Position numbers and translations under genes: made by a program
Notes under the pieces: model-generated
Seen by the model: the letters and a program-made list of their open reading frames with translations, nothing else
The model's database searches: none
Told to the model about the DNA's origin: nothing
Source: Ignavibacteriota bacterium
Lineage (GTDB): Bacteria > Bacteroidota > Ignavibacteria > UBA10030 > CAVZMI01
Reading direction: 5' to 3'
Assembly (NCBI GenBank): GCA_963776275.1
Contig: CAVZMI010000024.1
Span: forward strand, 1-16,858
DNA length: 16,858 nt
In this document: piece after piece, positions 2,077 to 16,858 of the stretch
How positions within the stretch are numbered: the stretch's first letter is position 1
Layout: every line of letters starts with the position of its first letter

Positions 2077-4539
2077 ATGAAAATTCTCAAATTTGGCGGG
2101 TCTTCGGTATCAAACGCAGAGCGTGTCCGGGAAGTGACACGGATCATTCTCGAATCGGCAAAGAAAGAACCTTTAATAATCGTTGTTTCGGCATTCCAAG
2201 GGATCACCAATCAACTTCTCGAATGCGCCGCGCTTGCCGAAGCCGGCAATCCGACATATGGAAAGCTGTATACGAAGATCGTGAAACGACACGAATCAAT
2301 GATCTCGTCGCTATTCAAAAATCATAGAAACAGAACGCTTGAATCAGAGATTACCCAGTTACTGGGCGAGTTGCACGACGTTCTTCATGGTATCAATTTA
2401 CTCCGCCATGCCCCTGAGCGATCGCTCGACCTGACAGCCAGTTTCGGGGAACGTCTCTCGACGCTCATTCTCTCGGCGTTCATCAATGTAAAACGGACTT
2501 CAGTACCCGTTGATACCCGCGATATGATTATTACCGACGATCAATTTACGCATGCGGCAGTTCAATTCGACAAAACAAATGTCGCAATCCGCCGGTATTT
2601 TAATCGTCTCTTCGCACATAAGAAGCGTTTACCGATTCCTGTTGTGACGGGATTCATTGCTTCCACGGAAGATGGAAGAACCACAACTCTTGGCCGGAAC
2701 GGCTCGGATTATACCGCTGCAATCATCGGAGCAGCGATGCATGCTTCGGTCGTAGAAATCTGGACTGATGTTGATGGTGTAATGAGCGCCGATCCCCGCG
2801 CTGTTCCTTCTGCATTTGTCATTCCGAGGCTATCGTATGAAGAGGCGATGGAAATGTCGTTCTTCGGTGCAAAGGTGCTGCATTCGGCTACTATCGCACC
2901 TGCGGTTGCGGAAAAAATTCCGATTCTCATTAAAAATACGTTGAATCCTTCGGCGCCCGGGACGTTGATCTCAGAAAGTGCCGAAACCTGGGAGGGAAGC
3001 GCCAAAGGAATGAGCTCGGTCGATCAGGTGTCGCTCCTGACCGTACGCGGTCTCGGAATGGTGGGGGTCCACGGGACGGCCGAACGATTGTTTCGGGCGC
3101 TTGCGACGGCGGGGATCAATATCATCCTGATCTCGCAGGCTTCCTCGGAACATACCATCTGTTTCGCCGTCTCGAGCGCAGATACCGATCGGGCAAGTGA
3201 AGCGATCCGAAACGAATTTCATTATGAAGTCCAGAACAATCTAACGGTGATCGATGTTAGAAAGGATCAGACCATCATTGCCGTAGTCGGTGAAAATATG
3301 CAGGGAACGCCGGGAGTGTCGGGCCGCGTCTTCAGCGCGGTCGGCCGAAATGCGATTAACGTTAATGCAATCGCACAGGGAGGATCGGAGCTGAATATTT
3401 CGTTTGTGATCGATGGATCGCAGCGCGTCCGTGCGTTGAACGTCGTCCATGAAGCATTTTTCGAAAAGAGGAAGAAGCTCGCACTGATTATCATCGGAGT
3501 CGGCAATATCGGCTCAACGCTGTTGAAGCAGTTGCATCAACAGAGAAAATTTTTAATCGAGAATGGATTCGACGTGCGCGTATGTGGTATTTCCAACAGC
3601 AAGCAGTATGTTTTGTCAAATGAAGGCATCGATCCTGGAGAATGGAGAAAAGCTCTTGATACTTCTCCCTACCGGTTCAATCCGGATGAGTTTATAACCC
3701 AGATAACAAAAATGGAATTAACAAACGCAGCGCTGGTCGATTGTACGGCAAGCTCGGAAATTGTCGACCGGTATCCTGACTTTGTCCGCGCGAACATGCA
3801 CATTGTGACTCCAAACAAAAAGGCGAATGTGCTTCCATGGAAACGGTATCAGGAGCTTATGGATGTTCTAAGGAAGCGGCAAAAATTCTTTTTCTATGAA
3901 GCGAATGTCGGTGCCGGACTTCCGGTTATCTCCACACTTCAGGATCTGATGGCCAGCGGCGATACGGTCATAAAAATCGAAGGAATATTTTCAGGAACTC
4001 TTAGTTATATCTTTAATTGCTATGATGGGAGCCGGCCCTTCAGCGCACTCTTACGTGAAGCGCACAAACTCGGATATACCGAGCCCGATCCGCGTGACGA
4101 TCTCTCAGGTCAAGATGTTGCACGAAAGATTCTTATTCTGGCGCGTCAGCTTGGACTCCAGATGGATCTCGATGATATTTATATTCAGAATCTGGTGCCT
4201 CCACGATTGCGGAACGGAAAATTCTCGATGGATTTTTTCAAGTCACTTCGTGACACCGATGCGGCCTTCGAACGCCTCCTCTCCGAGGCACGTTCACACG
4301 GCTCGATACTCCGCTATGTAGGATGGCTTTCGAATGGAGCGGCCCGGGCCGAGATCAAAGAATATCCGTCGAATCACCCCTTTGCGTCGACGAAGGATAC
4401 CGATAATATCATTGCGTTTACGACACAGCGCTATGCAAAGACTCCTCTTATCATACAGGGACCGGGAGCAGGAGCAGACGTGACGGCGATGGGAGTGTTC
4501 TCGGATATCAGGAAGCTGCTGTATTATCTTCCATTCTGA
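2077..4539 (+). CDS. thrA: Bifunctional aspartate kinase / homoserine dehydrogenase I
   Basis: 820 aa. It has the N-terminal KFGGSSV, TTTLGRNGSDYTA and WTDVDG aspartokinase motifs, two ACT domains, the GVGNIG Rossmann motif, and YEANVGAGLP, GYTEPDPRDDLSG and GPGAGADVTA homoserine dehydrogenase motifs. Confidence 0.96.
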   Translation: MKILKFGGSSVSNAERVREVTRIILESAKKEPLIIVVSAFQGITNQLLECAALAEAGNPTYGKLYTKIVKRHESMISSLFKNHRNRTLESEITQLLGELHDVLHGINLLRHAPERSLDLTASFGERLSTLILSAFINVKRTSVPVDTRDMIITDDQFTHAAVQFDKTNVAIRRYFNRLFAHKKRLPIPVVTGFIASTEDGRTTTLGRNGSDYTAAIIGAAMHASVVEIWTDVDGVMSADPRAVPSAFVIPRLSYEEAMEMSFFGAKVLHSATIAPAVAEKIPILIKNTLNPSAPGTLISESAETWEGSAKGMSSVDQVSLLTVRGLGMVGVHGTAERLFRALATAGINIILISQASSEHTICFAVSSADTDRASEAIRNEFHYEVQNNLTVIDVRKDQTIIAVVGENMQGTPGVSGRVFSAVGRNAINVNAIAQGGSELNISFVIDGSQRVRALNVVHEAFFEKRKKLALIIIGVGNIGSTLLKQLHQQRKFLIENGFDVRVCGISNSKQYVLSNEGIDPGEWRKALDTSPYRFNPDEFITQITKMELTNAALVDCTASSEIVDRYPDFVRANMHIVTPNKKANVLPWKRYQELMDVLRKRQKFFFYEANVGAGLPVISTLQDLMASGDTVIKIEGIFSGTLSYIFNCYDGSRPFSALLREAHKLGYTEPDPRDDLSGQDVARKILILARQLGLQMDLDDIYIQNLVPPRLRNGKFSMDFFKSLRDTDAAFERLLSEARSHGSILRYVGWLSNGAARAEIKEYPSNHPFASTKDTDNIIAFTTQRYAKTPLIIQGPGAGADVTAMGVFSDIRKLLYYLPF

Positions 4540-4584
4540 GGCGATAAGGAAAAGAATCAAATAATGTCTATATGGCATTTGGTC

Positions 4585-4695
4585 AAGGAAAAAGTGAAAA
4601 GTAAAAAGTAAAAAGTGAAGTGGAGAAAGTGAAAAGTAAGGATTTTTTCTCGCACATTTTCACACTTTTTCCTTTTGCCGTTTACCTTTTTACTT
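4585..4695. repeat. Gene-less inverted heptamer-array element with 33-bp arms (4585-4617 and 4663-4695). It forms a hairpin and may double as the thrA terminator.
   Basis: Left arm AAGG-AAAAAGT-GAAAAGT-AAAAAGT-AAAAAGT-G. Right arm CACTTTTTCCTTTTGCCGTTTACCTTTTTACTT. The arms are 26/33 complementary. They match the arms around 9749-10096 at 30/33 (left) and 31/33 (right). Confidence 0.85.
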
Positions 4696-4741
4696 AAGCT
4701 ATAGCCAAAGAAAAGGTTACAGACGAATTTCATCTTTTTTA

Positions 4742-4770
4742 TTGTTATATTTCCAGATAATATTTATAAT
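4742..4770 (+). promoter_or_regulatory. Sigma70-type promoter for the ABC transporter operon
   Basis: TTGTTA (4742-4747), 17 bp, TATAAT (4765-4770), upstream of GGAG (4787-4790) and GTG 4797. Confidence 0.55.
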
Positions 4771-4796
4771 CACATGCCACTTCCTTGGAGCGAAAT

Positions 4797-5828
4797 GTGA
4801 GCAACACGGTGAAGCCGTTGTTTCTCGGGCTGCTTTTTGTTTTCCTCGGTTGTTCTCAGCGTTCAGGAAACCAGCAGGTTACGATTCGCATCGGATACTT
4901 TCCCAACATTACACACTCGCAGGCACTCATCGGATTCTCAGCAGAACGCGGAGATTTTAAAAAAATTTTCGGTGATAGCGTCCGAATAGATCCAAAAATC
5001 TTCAACGCCGGACCCTCTGCAATCGAGGCGCTATTTGCCGGCGAACTCGATCTAGCTTATATCGGTCCGAATCCCTCGATAAACGGCTATGTGAAATCGC
5101 GTGGTGAGGCTTTACGAATTATTGCCGGCGCAACAAGCGGCGGTGCTGTGTTTGTCGCACGTCCCGGAGTGGCAATCAAAACACCGGCAGACTGGTCGGG
5201 CAAACGCGTCGCATCTCCTCAATTAGGTAATACGCAGGATGTCGCCCTCCGTTACTATCTTGTTTCGAACGGATTAAAAACAAGAGAAAATGGTGGGACG
5301 GTCACGATTATTCCTACTCAAAATCCCGATATTCTCACACTTTTTCACAAAGGAGAAATTGACGGCGCCTGGGTGCCGGAACCGTGGGGAGCCAGACTTG
5401 TGAAGGAAGCCGGCGGAACGATCATTCTGGATGAAAGGGATCTCTGGCCCGACCGGCGGTTTGAAACGGCAAATATCATAATCAGTACAAAATTTTTAAA
5501 TCAACATCCATTCCTGGTGAAACAATTTTTACTTACGCATGTTCAATTAACGCAATGGATTAACGCTCACCCGTCGGAAGCGAAATCAATCGCGAATGCG
5601 GAAATACGACGCCTCACGGGTAAAGCATTAAGTGCCGAAGTGCTTGAGAACGCATGGCAGCGGTTTGATTGTACGTATGATCCCATTTCGGCCTCGCTCT
5701 ATGTTTCAGCAGACCGGGCGTTTGTACTCGGATATCTAGGAGACACAAAACCGGATCTCTCCGGAATTTTCGATCTCCGATTGCTCAATGAAGTACTTGA
5801 CGAATTAAATCTACCGCCCGTTCAATGA
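4797..5828 (+). CDS. ABC transporter substrate-binding lipoprotein, SsuA/TauA/NrtA-like (sulfonate/nitrate/taurine class)
   Basis: RIGYFPNITHSQAL, FNAGPSAIEALFAGELDLAYIGPNP, PQLGNTQDVALR and WVPEPW motifs. Lipobox FLGC. GTG 4797 is preferred over TTG 4785 because GGAG lies 6 nt upstream. Confidence 0.88.
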   Translation: MSNTVKPLFLGLLFVFLGCSQRSGNQQVTIRIGYFPNITHSQALIGFSAERGDFKKIFGDSVRIDPKIFNAGPSAIEALFAGELDLAYIGPNPSINGYVKSRGEALRIIAGATSGGAVFVARPGVAIKTPADWSGKRVASPQLGNTQDVALRYYLVSNGLKTRENGGTVTIIPTQNPDILTLFHKGEIDGAWVPEPWGARLVKEAGGTIILDERDLWPDRRFETANIIISTKFLNQHPFLVKQFLLTHVQLTQWINAHPSEAKSIANAEIRRLTGKALSAEVLENAWQRFDCTYDPISASLYVSADRAFVLGYLGDTKPDLSGIFDLRLLNEVLDELNLPPVQ

Positions 5829-8488: not shown

Positions 8489-8526
8489 CAAGACGAGAGA
8501 TATATCATGATACAAAATACAATGCT

Positions 8527-8614
8527 GAGGAACAGGAAAAGGTGGAGGAAAAGGTAGAGGAAAAGTTTATCCCGAGCGAGTGAACGTAGTGAACGAGTCG
8601 AGGGGGTAAAGGGG
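8527..8614 (+). repeat. Left arm of cassette 1: purine-rich hexamer array (nAGGnn), interrupted by a 40-bp insert
   Basis: GAGGAA CAGGAA AAGGTG GAGGAA AAGGTA GAGGAA AA[insert 8565-8604]GGTA AAGGGG. AGG recurs every 6 nt. Confidence 0.75.
8565..8604. repeat. REP-like imperfect palindrome inserted in the hexamer array
   Basis: GTTTATCCCGAGCG-AGTGAACG-T-AGTGAACG-AGTCGAGGG. Removing it restores the 6-nt register of the flanking array exactly. Confidence 0.6.
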
Positions 8615-8616
8615 AG

Positions 8617-8979
8617 ATGTATAAATCTTTTAAAGAAATGCCGGTTTGGAAAGAAGCAATGTCGATTGCAGAGGAAGTGTTCCGGATTACAGAACAACTT
8701 CCTAAGAAAGAAGATTATGGATTAACCTCGCAAATCCGAAGATCCGCCTTGAGTATCTCCGCGAATATAGCAGAGGCATATGGACGTAAACACTCTCTTG
8801 ATAAAAGAAAATTTTATTATACAGTCAGAGGGTCAACGACAGAAACACAAAACCACTTGGAATACGGATTGCGTGTTGGTTATTTTAGTAGAATTCAAAT
8901 CGAAAATCTCGATAAACGATTGTGTCGAGTGTACAATGATCTAAATAAAATCGTTGTAACCCTAAAATCTTTACCTTAA
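8617..8979 (+). CDS. Four-helix-bundle protein (23S rRNA IVS protein / TIGR02436-like, Avd-related), copy 1
   Basis: 120 aa with family motifs F.EM.VW..A, LP..E.YGLTSQIRRSALSISANIAEAYGR and RGS..ET...L. Confidence 0.92.
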   Translation: MYKSFKEMPVWKEAMSIAEEVFRITEQLPKKEDYGLTSQIRRSALSISANIAEAYGRKHSLDKRKFYYTVRGSTTETQNHLEYGLRVGYFSRIQIENLDKRLCRVYNDLNKIVVTLKSLP

Positions 8980-9004
8980 CCTTAACCTTAACCTTTACCT
9001 TTCC
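8970..9004 (+). repeat. Right arm of cassette 1: (T)TWACC hexamer array, inverted relative to 8527-8614
   Basis: TTTACC TTAACC TTAACC TTAACC TTTACC TTTCC. It has five ACCTT units and contains the TAA stop of the four-helix-bundle gene. Confidence 0.85.
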
Positions 9005-9005
9005 A

Positions 9006-9561: not shown

Positions 9562-9712
9562 ATGACCCATTTAGACAGATTAGAAAGCACTTCCATCTAT
9601 ATTCTTCGCGAAGCCTATGCGATGTTCCATAACCTCGGTATGCTGTGGTCGATTGGTAAAGATAGCGAATCATGGAGGATTGGAGAAGTTACCTAGAGAT
9701 GGCTACATGTAA
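9562..9712 (+). pseudogene. cysD: Internally deleted cysD copy: first 35 codons joined out of frame to the last ~14 codons
   Basis: 9562-9666 matches 10157-10261 at 98/105 nt ([19 protein letters not shown]...SIGKDS). 9669-9712 matches 10995-11038 at 35/44 nt ([12 protein letters not shown] vs [12 protein letters not shown]). About 730 nt are missing. The frame from ATG 9562 stops at TAG 9694-9696 (44 aa). Confidence 0.9.
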
Positions 9713-9743
9713 GGAAAAAGTAAAAATTAAAAAGGAAAAAGTG
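9711..9743 (+). repeat. Left 33-bp heptamer arm of cassette 2
   Basis: AAGG-AAAAAGT-AAAAATT-AAAAAGG-AAAAAGT-G. It begins inside the TAA of the cysD remnant. Confidence 0.88.
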
Positions 9744-9748
9744 ATTAT

Positions 9749-10096
9749 ATGACAAGAGACTTGAGTGAACGTATATTCAAGTTCATCATACGGGTGATTT
9801 TGTTACTTCGGAAATTGCACAATGATGCTGAATCACGGAATATCAAACAACAACTCATCCGAGCCGCGACATCGGTTGGTGCGAATTATGAAGAAGCCCA
9901 GACAGCATCGTCTCGTGCAGATTTTAGGAATAAAATCAATATTGCTTTAAAGGAAATACGCGAGGTGCATTACTGGTTAAAAATAATTGCCGCTCTCGAG
10001 AAAATAGAAAATGCCGAGCTTCGAGAAATAAAGTCTGAAGCGAAAGAATTGATGCTAATATTTGGTTCCATTGCGACGAAAGTATCAAAAAAATGA
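9749..10096 (+). CDS. Four-helix-bundle protein (TIGR02436-like), copy 2
   Basis: 115 aa with QLIRAATSVGANYEEAQ.ASSRADF.NK.NIALKE.RE..YWL. Confidence 0.92.
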   Translation: MTRDLSERIFKFIIRVILLLRKLHNDAESRNIKQQLIRAATSVGANYEEAQTASSRADFRNKINIALKEIREVHYWLKIIAALEKIENAELREIKSEAKELMLIFGSIATKVSKK

Positions 10097-10108
10097 TTAA
10101 ACGAACAG

Positions 10109-10141
10109 CACTTTTACCTTTTGCCTTTTACCTTTTTACTT
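10109..10141 (+). repeat. Right 33-bp heptamer arm of cassette 2
   Basis: CACTTTTACCTTTTGCCTTTTACCTTTTTACTT. It is 26/33 complementary to 9711-9743. Confidence 0.88.
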
Positions 10142-10156
10142 GACCCTCTTCTGCTT

Positions 10157-11038
10157 ATGAGCCATTTAGACAGATTAGAAAGCATTTCCATCTATATTCT
10201 TCGCGAAGCCTATGCGACGTTCCACAACCTTGGCATGCTCTGGTCGATTGGTAAAGATAGCACGGTTCTCCTCTGGTTGGTTCGGAAAGCGTTTTTCGGA
10301 CATGTACCGTTTACATTGATTCACATTGATACCAGTTTCAAAATTCCGGAAATGATCCGATACCGCGATAAACTTGTTGAAGAACTCGGATTAAATCTGA
10401 TTTTTGGAATCAACGAAGAAGCGTTGAGAAAAAAACAAACGTTCCCCGACGGTCATGTGGACCACCTTGCATGCTGTAAAATCCTGAAGACCGACGCTCT
10501 CATCAATACAATTAACGGCACCTGGACGCGATACCGCTTCAACCGCACAACGAAAGTATATGAACCGGAGCATAATGGCGAACCGTTCGATGGAATCATA
10601 ACCGGAGCACGGGCCGACGAAGAGGGCTCACGGTCGAAAGAGCGCTATTTTTCAGCACGCGATGAAAAAAGCCAGTGGGATATAGCCGGCCAGCCGCCTG
10701 AATTCTGGAATTTTTATAAAACCGACTTTGCCCCGGGGACACATGTCCGAATTCATCCACTTCTTGATTGGACAGAACTGAACGTCTGGGAATATATCAA
10801 ACGTGAAAATATACCAACGGTATCGTTGTACTATAATAAAGGGGATGGGAAAAGATATCGTTCGCTCGGTTGTTATCCATGCACATTCCCGATCGACTCT
10901 GACTCCAGAACAGTCGATGAGATCATTGAAGAACTTAAAAGTGGAAAGCTGAAAAACGTCGCCGAGAGAAGCGGGAGAGCTCAGGATAAAGAAGATCAGG
11001 GGGGATTGGAAAGCTTACGAAGAGATGGATATATGTAA
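10157..11038 (+). CDS. cysD: Sulfate adenylyltransferase subunit 2 (293 aa)
   Basis: [23 protein letters not shown]-loop, [49 protein letters not shown], and a C-terminal GYM. ATG 10157 is chosen because 10121-10156 is largely repeat arm and the paralogous remnant starts at the equivalent ATG. Confidence 0.94.
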
Positions 11039-11069
11039 GGAAAAAGTAAAAATTAAAAAGGAAAAAGTA
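11037..11069 (+). repeat. Left 33-bp heptamer arm of cassette 3
   Basis: AAGG-AAAAAGT-AAAAATT-AAAAAGG-AAAAAGT-A. It starts inside the cysD TAA. 11033-11068 is identical to 9707-9742. Confidence 0.88.
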
Positions 11070-11074
11070 TTTAC

Positions 11075-11422
11075 ATGAAAAGAGATTTGGATGAACGAGT
11101 ATTCAATTTTACGATTAGGTTGATTTTATTTCTCCGCAAATTGCCAAATGATATTGAATTATGGAATATCAAACATCAGTTGATAAAGGCTGTGACTTCT
11201 GTTGGAGCTAATTATGAAGAGGCACAGGCGGCTTCTTCGCGTGCAGATTTCAAGAATAAATTAAATATTGCTTTGAAGGGGATACGAGAAACACATTATT
11301 GGATAAGAATCATCGGAGCACTAGAAAAAGTAAATAATGATGAAATCCGGGAACTTCAATCAGGAGCAAAAGAATTGATGTTGATCTTCGGATCAATTGC
11401 ATCGAAAGTATCAAAAAAATGA
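11075..11422 (+). CDS. Four-helix-bundle protein (TIGR02436-like), copy 3
   Basis: 115 aa with QLIKAVTSVGANYEEAQAASSRADF. It is 85/115 aa identical to copy 2, ungapped. Confidence 0.92.
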   Translation: MKRDLDERVFNFTIRLILFLRKLPNDIELWNIKHQLIKAVTSVGANYEEAQAASSRADFKNKLNIALKGIRETHYWIRIIGALEKVNNDEIRELQSGAKELMLIFGSIASKVSKK

Positions 11423-11457
11423 ATTCATCAATACGTGATACTTGTACTGCTAAAGAG

Positions 11458-12459
11458 TCAAGTTAACAGTTTTTGAAATTGTTGTCGTAAAGCACTATGT
11501 TTAGATTTAAATACATCAATCGGAATAGCCCCTTTTTTAGCTAGTCCGAAGTGAGCACGTTGAAAATTATAATACCATAAATATTTATCAAGAGCTTGTT
11601 GTAACTCTGGAAGAGAATTGAAGAATCGAGTACGGAACATTGGTTGATAGAACTCTTCCAGGATTGTTCTTTGAAAACGTTCACAGGTGCCATTAAGGAT
11701 CGGCTTGCCTTTGGGTATTCGATTGTGCTTGATATCATAAGCAGCAAGCATACGCTGGAATTGACTGCCGGTGAACTCAGTGCCATTATCCGTCAGTACA
11801 TACTCGAGATTGATACCGTTGTCGTAGAACTTCGGGATAAGCACATTTTCGACCAAATCGATCGTTGCTGATTGATCTTTACGAGTGTAGAGTTTTGCCC
11901 AGCCATAGCGAGAGCACAGATCAATACCAGAGATCTGGTAGATTCGTCCAACACGCTTGAGATGACCCACGTAAAAGGTATCTAGAGCGACAATATGCCC
12001 CGGCCAGAGTCCTTCATTGACTTTGTTGATCTGACGTTTCATCACGCGTAACGTTTGTTCGGTCAATGGTCGGTTGTCCATACGAGCACGTTCAAGATAG
12101 ACCAATCGTTGATAGCGACGATTCAGACCAAAACGCTTTAGGTGGTACCAGAGCGCCACATGAGTAACGGAAATGCCTTGCTGTTGAAAAATATAGGCAT
12201 ATCGTCGTGGTCCCCATGCTGGATGTTCTTGGACGAGTTCTAGTAAGAGTTTTTTCTTGCTCAGTGCCATCTCATTGGGCATTTTAGGCTTTCGTCGTAC
12301 CTTTGGAGCTAATGACCCTGTTTTGATGAACTGTGCTTTTATTTTGTAGAAGCTCGTTCGGCTCATCCCAAAAGTACGGCATGCTTGGCTCACACCGTGA
12401 CGTTCAGCGTAGATTAATAACGATCGACGCTGGTTAATGATCAGATCGTCTGTGGTCAT
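11458..12459 (-). CDS. IS481-family DDE transposase (HTH + rve integrase core)
   Basis: N-terminal HTH (VSQACRTFGMSRTSFYK), HPAWGP, ALDTFYVG.LK.VGRIY (D), LTDNGTEF (D), NGTCERFQRT..EEF (E), YNFQRAH. Confidence 0.92.
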   Translation of the reverse strand: MTTDDLIINQRRSLLIYAERHGVSQACRTFGMSRTSFYKIKAQFIKTGSLAPKVRRKPKMPNEMALSKKKLLLELVQEHPAWGPRRYAYIFQQQGISVTHVALWYHLKRFGLNRRYQRLVYLERARMDNRPLTEQTLRVMKRQINKVNEGLWPGHIVALDTFYVGHLKRVGRIYQISGIDLCSRYGWAKLYTRKDQSATIDLVENVLIPKFYDNGINLEYVLTDNGTEFTGSQFQRMLAAYDIKHNRIPKGKPILNGTCERFQRTILEEFYQPMFRTRFFNSLPELQQALDKYLWYYNFQRAHFGLAKKGAIPIDVFKSKHSALRQQFQKLLT

Positions 12460-12533
12460 TGGAGATCTCCCGGTTGTCCTTGTGTCCTATCCAGACACAA
12501 GTATACGACAACTCGAAGGTCCTTCCAATGACC
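12454..12533 (-). promoter_or_regulatory. Long hairpin covering the transposase SD and start codon
   Basis: Nested inverted segments: GGTCATTGGA/TCCAATGACC (12454-63/12524-33), GTTGTC/GACAAC (12473-78/12507-12) and CTTGTGTC/GACACAAG (12479-86/12494-501). Confidence 0.7.
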
Positions 12534-12591
12534 TTCATTTCAAAGAACAGTTAACTGATGTGTGTAAACACATCTCCTTAATAATACATGA

Positions 12592-12624
12592 TACTTTTTA
12601 ATTTTTCCTTTTTACTTTTTCCTT
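12592..12624 (+). repeat. Right 33-bp heptamer arm of cassette 3, displaced by the IS
   Basis: TACTTTTTAATTTTTCCTTTTTACTTTTTCCTT. It is 29/33 complementary to 11037-11069. Confidence 0.88.
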
Positions 12625-12638
12625 GAGAAAGAACCATT

Positions 12639-14444
12639 TTGACGGAAAACCATCTAAATATCATCGTTGCCGGCCATGTCGATCATGGAAAGAGCACAAT
12701 AATCGGCCGTCTTCTCGCTGATACCGGCTCTTTACCTGACGGGAAGCTCGAGCAGGTGAAGACCTTGTGCGAGCGCAACTCTAAGCCGTTCGAATATGCA
12801 TTTCTGATCGATGCTCTTAAAGATGAGCGTTCGCAGGGCATTACTATCGATGCCGCACGCGTGTTTTTCAAGACTGAAAAGAGGCATTACATTATTATCG
12901 ATGCGCCGGGACATATCGAATTTTTGAAAAACATGATGACTGGGGCATCGCGGGCCGGGGCGGCAATACTGGTGATCGATGCTTCGGAAGGCGTTCAGGA
13001 GAATTCGCGGCGGCACGGCTATCTGCTTTCAATGCTGGGGATACGTCAGATTGCTGTCGTTATTAATAAAATGGACATAGCCGGCTACCAAAAAGAGGTG
13101 TTCGATACGCATGTGAAAGAGTTTTCGCTATTCCTTGAAACGATAGGAATTCGCGCTGTGAATTTCATTCCGGTCAGCGGCTGCAGGGGAGATAACATAG
13201 CAGCGAGAAGTGCCGCGATGAAATGGTATACAGGGGCGACAGTGCTTGAGGCTCTTGATACATTCGAGGAATCAAAAACTCCGCTGGATCTTCCATTCAG
13301 GTTCCCGGTTCAGGATGTTTATAAGTTTACGAAATATAACGACACCCGCCGGATTATCGCCGGCACGGTTTCTTCAGGTTCAATCCGTCCGGATGACGAA
13401 ATTGTCTTTTATCCTTCGGGGAAGAGGAGCAGAGTAGCAACCATCGAGGTATTCAATGCTCCCCTGACGCAGCTCGCCTGCACAGATTCGGCAACCGGTT
13501 TCACCCTCAAGGAACAGATCTATGTCACACGCGGTGAAATAGCTGCAAAGGTTGGAGAACCGCCCCCGCAGATTTCGTCACGACTGCACGTCAGTCTCTT
13601 CTGGATGGCAAGACGCCCGCTTTCCGTCGGGAAACAATATCTTTTGAAATGCGGAACGACAAAGACTCATATGCAGATAGAGGAACTGATAAAAGTCATC
13701 GATGCTTCCGATCTTCATACATTGTCCGTTCAGAACTTTGTGGAACGGCACCAGGTTGCCGAGTGTGATATGAAATTGGAGAAGGCGATTGCGTTTGATC
13801 GTGTCGGCGATGTAGCAGGGACGGGGCGGTTCGTCGTCGTGGATGAGTATGAAATAGCCGGAGGTGGTATAATTCTCGATACACTTGAGGATCAACAGGC
13901 TTTTGTACGCGAGAAAGTTCTCACCCGTAATATCAAGTGGGAAAAAAGCACTATCCCGTCAGAAGTTCGCGCCGAACGTTTTAAGCAAAAACCGGCTTTG
14001 ATTCTGATCACCGGTAAAAAGAACAGCGGTAAAAAGCCGCTCGCACGGGCACTGGAGAAAAAATTGCTCGAGGGTGGATATCATGCATATTTCCTCGGGA
14101 TCGGGAATATATTATACGGAGTCGATGCAGATATCAAAGGAATTCATGATGACAGGTACGAGCATATCCGGAGGCTGGCGGAAGTCTCCAATATTCTTCT
14201 GGATACCGGCATAATACTTATAGTCACCGCCATTGATCTTCACACGAACGAAATCGATCTAATTCGGATGACGTGTAATGAATATGAAACCATGACAATC
14301 TGGGTTGGTGAGAGCGGAACTCCCGTATTGAACTTTGATATTGCAGTTTCAAGCAACACGCCGATCGATGCAACAGTCGAAAAAATTCTTCAAGATCTTA
14401 AGACGAGATTATTCAGTGCAGGGGAAGGAAATTATCATAGCTGA
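12639..14444 (+). CDS. cysN: Sulfate adenylyltransferase subunit 1 (GTPase) with a degenerate C-terminal APS-kinase-like domain (CysN/CysNC type)
   Basis: [36 protein letters not shown]......TGRFVVVD....GGG. The C-terminal [14 protein letters not shown]...SGK...[15 protein letters not shown] is CysC-like. It lies next to cysD. TTG start. Confidence 0.88.
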
Positions 14445-15274: not shown

Positions 15275-16059
15275 TGAAAAACGTTCCTGTTATCATCGGT
15301 GGTTTTTATCGTTCAGGCACCAGTCTCCTGCGGAGATTATTCGATGCACATTCTCAAATTCATTGCAGTCCGGAGATAAAGTTTTTTAATGATTTTTACG
15401 GGAGGTATCTTCACGACGATCTGAACCATATACGGTTCTTTACGACTCTTCGATCGATCGGATTGGATGAGGGTACACTGCTGGAGATATTCGGGAAGGC
15501 GTACATTAAAAGTCATGAGGAAGCCGCGCGAAAATTCGGGAAAAGGATCTGGGCCGATAAAAATCCGGAAAATGTTCTCTTCCTGGAACAATGGCAGAGT
15601 CTCCTGCAGGGACAATTCGTTTTCATTCACGTGATCAGGCATCCCCTGGATGTGATGGCATCGTTGCTGGAAGTACGGTTTGAAAAAACGATACAGACGG
15701 ATTTTAAGGACAAAGTGTTACTCTATAAGCATTTTGTGGAATGCGGTCTTGAATTCTCCGCACGATATCCTGAACAAAGTCATGAAGTGCGTTATGAATC
15801 TCTGATCTCCGATCCGGAGTCCACTCTGAAAATTCTTCTCGATTCGCTGGGATTGGAGTATGAACCGGTCATGGTAACGGGATTCAACAGTCCTCAAAGA
15901 CAGGAAGGTATTGAAGATCCAAAGATTTATTCGACAAAGACAATCCACACACGGAGCATCGGACGCTGGAAAAAAGATTTAGCACCAAGACACATCAGGG
16001 TTGTGCGATCGTTGCTCTCCGAGCTTGCCCGAAAACTTGGTTACGAGCTTTCGTCATAA
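15271..16059 (+). CDS. PAPS-dependent sulfotransferase
   Basis: 5'-PSB motif IGGFYRSGTSLLRRLFDAH, WADKNP.N, 3'-PB motif IRHPLDVMAS, RYESLISDP, SIGRWK. The start is either GTG 15271 or ATG 15274. Confidence 0.92.
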   Translation: MMKNVPVIIGGFYRSGTSLLRRLFDAHSQIHCSPEIKFFNDFYGRYLHDDLNHIRFFTTLRSIGLDEGTLLEIFGKAYIKSHEEAARKFGKRIWADKNPENVLFLEQWQSLLQGQFVFIHVIRHPLDVMASLLEVRFEKTIQTDFKDKVLLYKHFVECGLEFSARYPEQSHEVRYESLISDPESTLKILLDSLGLEYEPVMVTGFNSPQRQEGIEDPKIYSTKTIHTRSIGRWKKDLAPRHIRVVRSLLSELARKLGYELSS

Positions 16060-16090
16060 CTATTCTCGTTCTCTCGAGAGGCATCGCTGT

Positions 16091-16858
16091 ATGGATACAT
16101 GGATGAGGAACGGACCGGTTGTAATCGGCGGTGTGGGGGGCAGCGGTACCAGAGTCGTCGCAGAGATATTACGCGAGGTCGGATTCTATCTGGGAGCCGA
16201 TTTAAACTTGGCGTTGGATAATCTTTGGTTTACCCTGTTGTTGAAACGGCCCAGGTTGTTTCATAAAAAAAGCGCTTTGAAAGTCGAGGTATGCCGGGGT
16301 TTTTCAATCCTGGAGAAAATAATGAAAGGCGAGTCCGGATTATCATGGCGTGAGTATAAATTTTTGATCTCTGCGATCAGTGAAATGATGGTTTTTGGCC
16401 ATGACTATCTTCGGGCTGGCAAAGGCTGTTGGCCTTTGAAGCGTGCTATATCCATGTTATCAAAGAATAGATTGGCCTTGAGGGATTATATCGGTTGGGG
16501 TTGGAAAGAACCGAATACACATATTTTCATTGAGTATTTGGCTGAGTATTTCAGCAATTTAAAATATATTCATGTCATCAGACATGGTCTGGATATGGCC
16601 TATCACAATAATCAATCCCAATTATACAATTGGGGAAGTCTTTTTGGAGTAGAAAAGCCAAAGACTTTGAAAGATCTTCCCGTTGCTTCTCTTGAATATT
16701 GGATCAAAGCGAATCAAAAAGCCATCCGGCTGGGTAAAAATATTTTGAATGAGCGATTTCTACTGATTAACTTTGACCAGCTATGTGAAACCCCTAAAAT
16801 TGAGGTAGAAAAAATTCTTACTTTTCTGGAATTTCAAACTAACGATATTGATTTTATT
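16091..16858 (+). CDS. Second sulfotransferase-family protein, 3'-truncated by the window edge
   Basis: Manual translation from ATG 16091 (GAGAGG upstream): MDTWMRNGPVVIGGVGGSGTRVVAEIL...WGWKEPNTH...HVIRHGLDMA...NFDQLCETP. It stays open for 256 codons to the window end and is not in the ORF track. Confidence 0.85.
   Translation, partial: MDTWMRNGPVVIGGVGGSGTRVVAEILREVGFYLGADLNLALDNLWFTLLLKRPRLFHKKSALKVEVCRGFSILEKIMKGESGLSWREYKFLISAISEMMVFGHDYLRAGKGCWPLKRAISMLSKNRLALRDYIGWGWKEPNTHIFIEYLAEYFSNLKYIHVIRHGLDMAYHNNQSQLYNWGSLFGVEKPKTLKDLPVASLEYWIKANQKAIRLGKNILNERFLLINFDQLCETPKIEVEKILTFLEFQTNDIDFI

Follow-up and report, generated by a model that had tools for sequence, protein, structure and literature searches.

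Why should the arms of a gene cassette recur without their gene between thrA and the first gene of a sulfur cluster, and what may such a copy do to the thrA transcript? The question is raised by a 111-bp element (positions 4585–4695) in contig CAVZMI010000024.1 of an Ignavibacteriota bacterium (assembly GCA_963776275.1). The window analysed was this whole 16,858-nt contig (C24; other contigs are cited likewise) of a 3.70-Mb assembly in 38 contigs. This source genome (G000) was compared with a sister species of the same genus (G001), with a member of the same family (G002) and with further genomes of the order. The element belongs, as a member without a gene, to a hairpin-repeat family whose arms are inverted arrays of ~4.7 heptamers. 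Arms of the same AAAAAKK type bracket genes of the PF05635 family in this genome, and other heptamer types bracket other paralogues. The reading that we favour, with about even confidence, is that the element is a non-autonomous hairpin repeat resembling rRNA intervening sequences (IVSs), a family member in the 3′ region of thrA that would act as an RNA processing site and need no protein.

The element comprised an inverted pair of 33-nt arms around a 45-nt loop; no open reading frame (ORF) was found between the arms. The left arm began 45 nt past the thrA stop codon (Table 1). Each arm was a run of heptamers (AAAAAGG, AAAAAGT, AAAAATT), and Tandem Repeats Finder (TRF) reported 4585–4639 as a period-7 array of 7.9 copies; the cassette arms also had period 7. 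A first-pass annotation had likened the two arms to those of its “cassette 2”, which is the cassette at 9711–10141, at 30/33 and 31/33 with shared orientation and boundaries (AAGG...GTG, CAC...ACTT), and these figures were exact (left arm to 9711–9743, right arm to 10109–10141). Likeness to the cassette at 11037–12624 was 29/33 on the left (11037–11069) and 25/33 on the right. The same annotation had held the right arm to be closer to the cassette's right arm than to its own partner, and the loop to be partly self-complementary. Both statements were confirmed, the two arms of the element being complementary to each other at 26/33 and the loop pieces GTGGAGAAA and TTTCTCGCAC pairing with one bulged G.

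When up to three mismatches were allowed, each arm matched in the window only itself and the corresponding arm of cassette 9711–10141, and neither arm was matched in 200 dinucleotide-preserving shuffles. Likeness to the cassette arm stopped exactly at the arm ends. Likeness to cassette ends reached beyond 4585, the left boundary in the first reading, since 4566–4616 was 80% complementary over 51 nt to 12593–12643 at the right end of a cassette. For the segment 4560–4720 the folding energy was −39 kcal/mol (z = −3.3), a value equalled by one shuffle in 200. Mismatches between unit variants (G/T versus C/A) were purine-purine or pyrimidine-pyrimidine on both strands, and therefore G:U wobble cannot tell RNA pairing from DNA pairing. 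A search of Rfam found no rRNA in the window, and the element itself gave only two matches, both below threshold and without meaning (Plasmodium RNase P, 30/100 bits; MIR408, 20/64 bits).

Arms of this type were abundant in the genome. A regular expression requiring at least three units found 66 AAAAAKK-type arms versus ~3 expected (1 match in 1.18 Mb of shuffled sequence), and blastn-short with the window's arms gave 60 arm-like intervals. Seventeen gene-less close pairs, with 22–221 nt between the arms, were counted; the thrA element was thus not a one-off sequence but had 16 further gene-less companions of the same arm type. Arms also occurred around genes (four pairs) and singly (about twenty). 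Strict arms with a neighbour within 300 nt were in hairpin orientation in eight of ten cases, where ~0.35 close pairs would be expected by chance, as estimated from 66 arms in 3.7 Mb. The background threshold of one pair scan was void, its random segments having contained family members, and the pair table was used instead. Period 7 was the commonest among the TRF arrays of the genome (229 of 978), and other heptamer unit types also formed gene-less pairs.

The arms themselves carried marks of common origin. The right-arm variant CCTTTTGCCKTTTACCTTTTTAC was found, on searching G000, G001 and G002, only at 4671–4693, at 10117–10139 in the cassette and at the thrA junction of G001; because of this distribution, we take the arms to be copied as modules. 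Common to gene-less and gene-bearing copies and sharply bounded, the variant points to a 33-nt module passed between them. The earlier view of the element as a gene-less relative of the cassettes was therefore borne out by shared arm sequence, boundaries, orientation and this rare variant. One unit order (GT, TT, GG) accounted for 9 of 36 exact arm windows, in which 17 orders were observed. An exact ATGGC lay 9–16 nt outside the arm in 7 of 42 arms, and about eight more had a one-letter variant. This “head”, ATGGCT plus 6–7 nt, stood just outside many AAAAAKK arms (e.g. C35:16960, C20:278074, C23:467316 and window 4572). Relative to co-directional flanking genes, the head-bearing arm was on the 5′ side nine times and on the 3′ side three times, a difference that was not significant (hand count with crude ORF calls). 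The loops of the 17 gene-less copies were unrelated, sharing only two short matches (12 and 15 nt).

The sister species, whose thrA was 97% identical to that of the window, had kept the element at this junction. The left arm there was exactly one heptamer shorter, position 4680 read T instead of G, and the loop had a single substitution. Both arm differences were also seen in a metagenome contig (~97% identity; two DNA runs). In G002, thrA was followed by a G+C-rich hairpin and then a T run, read by eye as an intrinsic terminator, and in more distant relatives thrB lay directly downstream of thrA. The junction check that the first-pass annotation had proposed thus showed the element in the sister species, one heptamer shorter, and another hairpin in the family member. 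Seven other orthologous sites were compared between the source genome and the sister species (Table 1). The arms are likely to change by slippage, because the sister species and the metagenome contig were one heptamer shorter at thrA and the arms at C3:20357 were two and three units shorter. Matches to the arm pattern numbered 60 in the source genome, 19 in the sister species, 3 in G002 and 0–23 in 28 further members of the order; because this pattern is identical when reversed, the control that accompanied these counts is void.

Table 1. Features of the element, its neighbours and the related cassettes in the window, and orthologous sites compared between the source genome (G000) and the sister species (G001)
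Feature	Position	Strand	Remarks
thrA (aspartokinase / homoserine dehydrogenase)	2077..4539	+	Pfam AA_kinase, ACT, Homoserine_dh
Left head, ATGGCA at 4572-4577	4566..4584	+	outside the arm
Left arm: AAGG then tandem heptamers (AAAAAGT type)	4585..4617	+	
Loop (45 nt) with additional degenerate units (4618-4639) and a short inner stem GTGGAGAAA / TTTCTCGCAC	4618..4662	+	
Right arm, complement of the left arm, with rare units CTTTTGC and CGTTTAC	4663..4695	+	
Possible inverted head copy, TGGCT on the minus strand	4696..4712	-	weak: 11/24 ungapped matches to the left head
Sigma-70-like site between element and ABC gene	4742..4770	+	TTGTTA-17-TATAAT, 10/12
ABC substrate-binding gene, first of the downstream sulfur cluster	4785..5828	+	Pfam NMT1_2
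Third cassette, with a different arm unit (GGAAAAGGT / AACCTT) around PF05635 gene 8617-8979	8525..9005	+	
Cassette with AAAAAKK arms around PF05635 gene 9749-10096	9711..10141	+	arms most closely related to those of the element
Second AAAAAKK-armed cassette: PF05635 gene 11075-11422 and inserted insertion sequence 11442-12588	11037..12624	+	rve transposase 11458-12459, minus strand
Orthologous sites	C23:467331 and C23:444716		one arm missing
Orthologous sites	C27:43406 and C20:65515		one arm interrupted by nested small hairpin boxes
Orthologous site	C3:20357		G001 arms 2 and 3 units shorter, loop conserved
Orthologous site	C35:16975		whole element missing, 972-nt stretch instead
Orthologous site	C32:106564		region collinear, matched end to end in G001 (region level)

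The three cassettes of the window sat within the tight cluster running from the ABC genes to cysN. Their ORFs (8617–8979, 9749–10096 and 11075–11422) all belonged to PF05635 (23S_rRNA_IVP, the 23S rRNA intervening-sequence protein), with scores of 108.5, 72.9 and 64.5 bits against a gathering cut-off of 33.8, and the cassette protein is a 115-aa four-helix bundle. A family search of the genome gave 11 PF05635 matches. These genes mostly had complementary repeat arrays on both sides, and the unit type varied with the protein subfamily (AAAAAKK, AAAGGT/AACCTT, GAAGTTT/AAACCTG, GATTTCT/TCATCAA and ATTCACA). For 37 PF05635 loci in 28 genomes of the order, complementarity of the upstream flank to the locus's own downstream flank averaged 15.4 versus 8.5 for the downstream flanks of other loci; the loci are related and not independent, so this comparison is no statistical test. 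The own flank was the best partner in 19 of the 37 loci, and otherwise the better partners were mostly of the same unit type. Homologues at 39–56% identity in six other genomes (G019, G028, G008, G018, G003 and G014) also had A-rich heptamer arms. The position of a PF05635 cassette between ABC exporter genes is kept across families of the order: in five genera (L046–L050: G028, G008, G018, G003, G014) it lay between the same two tandem genes. The sister species had nine PF05635 loci, none with AAAAAKK arms, and its best relative of the 11075 cassette protein was only 35% identical. The element there persists, then, without a cognate protein.

How the element came about, and what it does, may be pictured as follows. 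Copying or conversion between loci would act on the 33-nt arm as a unit, with loops of local sequence, and slippage would then add or remove whole heptamers in the arms. The element at thrA would be old enough to be common to the sister species, and its right arm may have been exchanged with the cassette 5.4 kb downstream. Transcription out of thrA would then give a long, imperfect, A:U-rich stem of ~33 bp. By analogy with rRNA IVSs, in which stems with heptamers are cut by RNase III, its likeliest effect would be that of a processing or 3′-end site, and such a site would uncouple the thrA transcript from what follows. The RNA stem is probably of the kind that RNase III cuts, and an RNase III gene is present in the source genome. 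Family members occupied probably co-transcribed spacers, including tRNA-tRNA spacers; from a tRNA precursor, an insert has to be taken out at the level of RNA, as with rRNA IVSs. We do not think that the element needs the four-helix-bundle protein to persist, nor that it is a regulated switch.

IVSs of 23S rRNA also occur without an ORF (Salmonella type). The present family resembled the 23S rRNA IVSs with an S23p/PF05635 ORF (Coxiella burnetii, Leptospira) in having an inverted-repeat stem around a PF05635 gene or around nothing, in a stem region with tandem heptamers that vary in number between strains, and in lying inside co-transcribed RNA, here including the spacers between tRNAs. It differed from them in several ways: the element lies between thrA and an ABC gene and not in a 23S rRNA helix, the window having no rRNA match; the whole arm is a heptamer array, and there are dozens of copies per genome; and RNase III cleavage is here predicted by analogy. 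As described in the accessible part of PMC4990558, the Coxiella IVS has a 28-bp terminal stem that RNase III cuts mid-stem in vitro, and two or three tandem heptamers beside the S23p start codon, the number of which varies by strain.

Convergent pairs of heptamer repeats have been described from Xanthomonas (GGGAATC), and heptamer repeats from Nostoc and Calothrix (Rehm et al. 2015, PMC4692102, accessible part); there, as here, intergenic tandem heptamers often form two convergent arrays on opposite strands, and length varies at the same junction between close relatives. Those repeats are G-rich and are studied as quadruplexes, unlike the A-rich units found here, which cannot form quadruplexes, and the accessible part of PMC4692102 makes no link to PF05635. 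A literature search, with subscription journals mostly outside its coverage, found no published link between PF05635 and heptamer hairpins outside rRNA and yielded no more than the papers on the Coxiella IVS and on the Xanthomonas and Nostoc repeats. PF05635 proteins, rRNA IVSs and the intergenic heptamer excess have stood unexplained for decades, and this locus ties all three together in one genome, with the same 33-nt arms around PF05635 genes and, gene-less, in mRNA and tRNA-tRNA spacers. If such stems are cut by RNase III, they would represent a general way of cutting operon transcripts and would offer a tractable model for the origin and spread of IVSs. For annotation, heptamer hairpins should not be read by default as terminators or operators.

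Several observations weigh against an IVS-like processing site. Gene-less pairs were co-directional, divergent and convergent in the proportion 12:4:1, as in the background of intergenic regions (1198:277:237). There is thus no sign of selection for transcript 3′ ends, and a selfish or neutral repeat fits equally well. In the comparison with the sister species the element had 2 substitutions in 104 aligned nt versus 6 differences in 134 nt of flanking spacer, and judged from this alignment it diverges about like its surroundings, with no clear purifying selection. Both the background distribution and the lack of excess conservation speak against a dedicated function. With its arms matching at 26/33, the stem is imperfect and consists almost wholly of A:U pairs, and transcription through the element, its cleavage and termination are all steps that we infer. 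Arms at the other orthologous sites were single, interrupted or shorter, or the whole element was absent, and neither a clean insertion footprint nor an empty site bearing one was seen at the sites compared with the sister species. The arm layout is not universal either, as the PF05635 match at C21:227163 had an own-flank score of 6.5 (rank 32 of 37), and those at C27:41262 and C32:31651 showed no arms or were left out. Finally, the source genome had about three times as many arm matches as the sister species (60 versus 19), and cassettes with AAAAAKK arms occurred only in the source genome (n = 2 genomes), which is what protein-dependent spread would give.

This last observation leads to the explanation in which the element is the non-autonomous partner of the four-helix-bundle protein, which would recognise the arms as DNA or RNA and spread them or act on them in trans, for example on read-through from thrA. 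To our knowledge PF05635 has no known catalytic activity, and we regard this explanation as unlikely. It gains from the finding that for every abundant heptamer type of the genome one or more PF05635 genes stood between arms of this type, from the A-rich arms kept by the distant homologues in other families, and from the difference in arm matches between the genome with AAAAAKK cassettes and the one without. It also gains from the likeness of the layout to REPINs, the hairpin-forming doublets built from repetitive extragenic palindromes (REPs), and their REP-associated tyrosine transposases (RAYTs), with inverted doublets, variable spacers, singlets and gene-matched types (PMC3116915, accessible part). 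Yet the element and 19 pattern matches are present in the sister species, which has no cognate protein, and G010 had 23 matches although its best homologue, the only one of four with flanks read, had other arms. Gene and arms are moreover inherited together, so that matching types follow from descent alone. The first-pass annotation had suggested that the protein of cassette 2 controls termination or read-through into the sulfur cluster. This is not supported by the sister species, with its 35% identical best relative and none of nine loci AAAAAKK-armed, nor by the promoter-like site between the element and the ABC gene. That site is a consensus match only, of which shuffles average 1.4.

A bolder form of the same idea, which we hold to be distinctly unlikely, is that hairpins and cassettes make up a two-part REPIN/RAYT-like system driven by an Avd-like four-helix-bundle protein that promotes copying or conversion of arms between co-transcribed spacers. 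Solved relatives of the protein are pentamers (PMC4990558, accessible part). A pentamer would read about five heptamers per arm and so promote the copying or conversion of the 33-nt modules, the thrA element, as a non-autonomous member, would have exchanged right arms with the cassette 5.4 kb away, and the threefold arm excess over the cassette-less sister would be a trace of this activity. According to the accessible part of Bertels and Rainey (2011, PMC3116915), REPINs are inverted doublets forming hairpins, with poorly conserved spacers and many singlets, spread over extragenic space as by chance and with several types per genome, each matched to its bracketed gene, and the present family was similar in all these points. 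It was unlike REPINs in that the bracketed gene encodes a 115-aa four-helix bundle and not a Y1 transposase, that the arms are tandem heptamers and not a 16-mer palindrome, and that no transposition intermediate was seen.

Another possibility is that a PF05635 gene once stood between the arms of the thrA element and was deleted, as the term “deleted cassette” of the first-pass annotation implied. Arm boundaries and orientation are indeed those of the cassette, truncated PF05635 genes stood between arms at C23:87962 and C27:41262, and some gene-less copies carried the box GTTTATCCCGAGCGA..., which also occurred in the 5′ part of a cassette at 8566–8612. We nevertheless consider such a scar improbable. 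The loop of the element was no more like the three cassette interiors than shuffled loops were, and the same gene-less form was present in the sister species and in the metagenome contig. At C3:20357, where the arms differed by whole heptamers between sister species, a short proto-hairpin in the sister species corresponded to a longer one in the source genome with the same loop, indicating that hairpins can grow or shrink in place without a gene. The proposal of a classical MITE (miniature inverted-repeat transposable element) fared no better. MITEs are short, gene-less elements with terminal inverted repeats and many copies, and have a longer gene-bearing relative. The present elements agreed with them in short gene-less form, terminal inverted repeats, copy number and a longer gene-bearing form. 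They differed in that the 17 copies had no common internal sequence and that the gene-bearing form encodes no known transposase. Inspection by eye of the 15 nt on either side of the 17 copies, the ends of which were fuzzy, revealed no target-site duplication.

The hairpins might also be purely local products of heptamer microsatellite slippage, with template switching for the partner arm, without copying between loci and without function. Heptamers being the commonest TRF period, the gain and loss of units between sister species, the single arms at some orthologous sites and the chance-like distribution over intergenic classes would all suit this origin, and a heptamer excess with convergent pairs is published for Xanthomonas (PMC4692102, accessible part). 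What makes us doubt it is that a rare arm variant with sharp ends occurred at two loci 5.4 kb apart, that one unit order made up a quarter of the windows (9/36), that 7 of 42 arms had an ATGGC head outside them at a fixed distance, and that the unit type was kept around homologous genes across families. That the element is simply the intrinsic terminator of thrA appears very improbable, in spite of its distance of 45 nt from the stop codon, its U-rich 3′ arm and the G+C-rich hairpin with a T run at the equivalent place in G002. A terminator scan found no site between 4540 and 4784, and the element does not have the G+C-rich stem directly followed by a T run that defines such terminators. Its stem is A:U-rich with the U runs paired, and 4 of the 17 gene-less copies lay between divergent genes.

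Some further observations concern the cassettes and the wider family. In the tRNA operon of the source genome (C21:226503–227633), a gene-less AAAAAKK hairpin filled the tRNA-Arg/tRNA-His spacer and a PF05635 cassette stood between tRNA-His and tRNA-Glu. A PF05635 gene was also found in the His-Glu spacer of G013 and G021, and between tRNA-Arg and tRNA-Glu in G017; in the operon of the sister species, the Arg-His spacer carried a hairpin built from a different heptamer type, and the His-Glu spacer had no gene. At C16:814–852 and C16:8267–8305, a perfect 39-nt AAAAAKK inverted repeat, 7.4 kb apart, was pyrimidine-first, the opposite of the hairpin orientation.

A link of the family to RAYTs of its own genome was considered and rejected. 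There were nine Y1_Tnp matches in the genome, and the seven with flanks read all had G+C-rich palindromes, none of them being bracketed by an AAAAAKK arm pair; a single AAAAAKK arm lay ~225 nt upstream of the match at C23:155327. The Y1 transposase genes (RAYT or IS200-like) at C23:193133, C27:40241, C28:53606 and C23:249303 form a separate REP-like system.

The segment 9544–10138 had no counterpart in the sister species. Ahead of cassette 9711–10141 the cysD 5′ end was duplicated over 123 nt (89% identity to 10139–10261), and ~42 nt of the cysD 3′ end stood there too. The copy of cysD 3′ end, left arm and ORF start was only 77% identical to 10995–11294. At the cysD-cysN junction, the sister species (L021, 12396–12826) had an 8617-type PF05635 gene with AAAGGT/ACCTTT arms and no insertion sequence (IS), and the source genome had a cassette in which AAAAAKK arms enclose a gene of another PF05635 subfamily; the replacement took in gene and arms together. 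Both AAAAAKK cassettes (9699–9752 and 11025–11078) contained a 17-codon frame that started from an ATG inside the last cysD codons, crossed the left arm in its sole open frame and ended at a TGA overlapping the PF05635 ATG (ATGA). Such a frame would fit with translational coupling by which the stem is opened. The corresponding frame of the gene-less element, which starts in the left head and runs into the left arm, had only 10 codons, and that of the copy in the sister species, as read from its sequence, had 4 codons.

Window 15316–16099 (~780 nt, in sulfotransferase genes) corresponded to only ~70 nt in the sister species. The 1.15-kb IS with the rve transposase was present in four copies of 99.8–100% identity (window 11442–12588, C21:225284–226433, C23:64169–65314 and C22:11219–12365), three of which were inside heptamer-armed elements, beside an arm or in the loop. 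A small repeat, GTTTATCCCGAGCGA...GAGTCGAGGG, with an inner mini-hairpin was nested in or beside heptamer arms at several loci, namely window 8566–8612 in the 5′ part of the 8617 cassette, C35:17060–17115, and L041 and L073 of the sister species.

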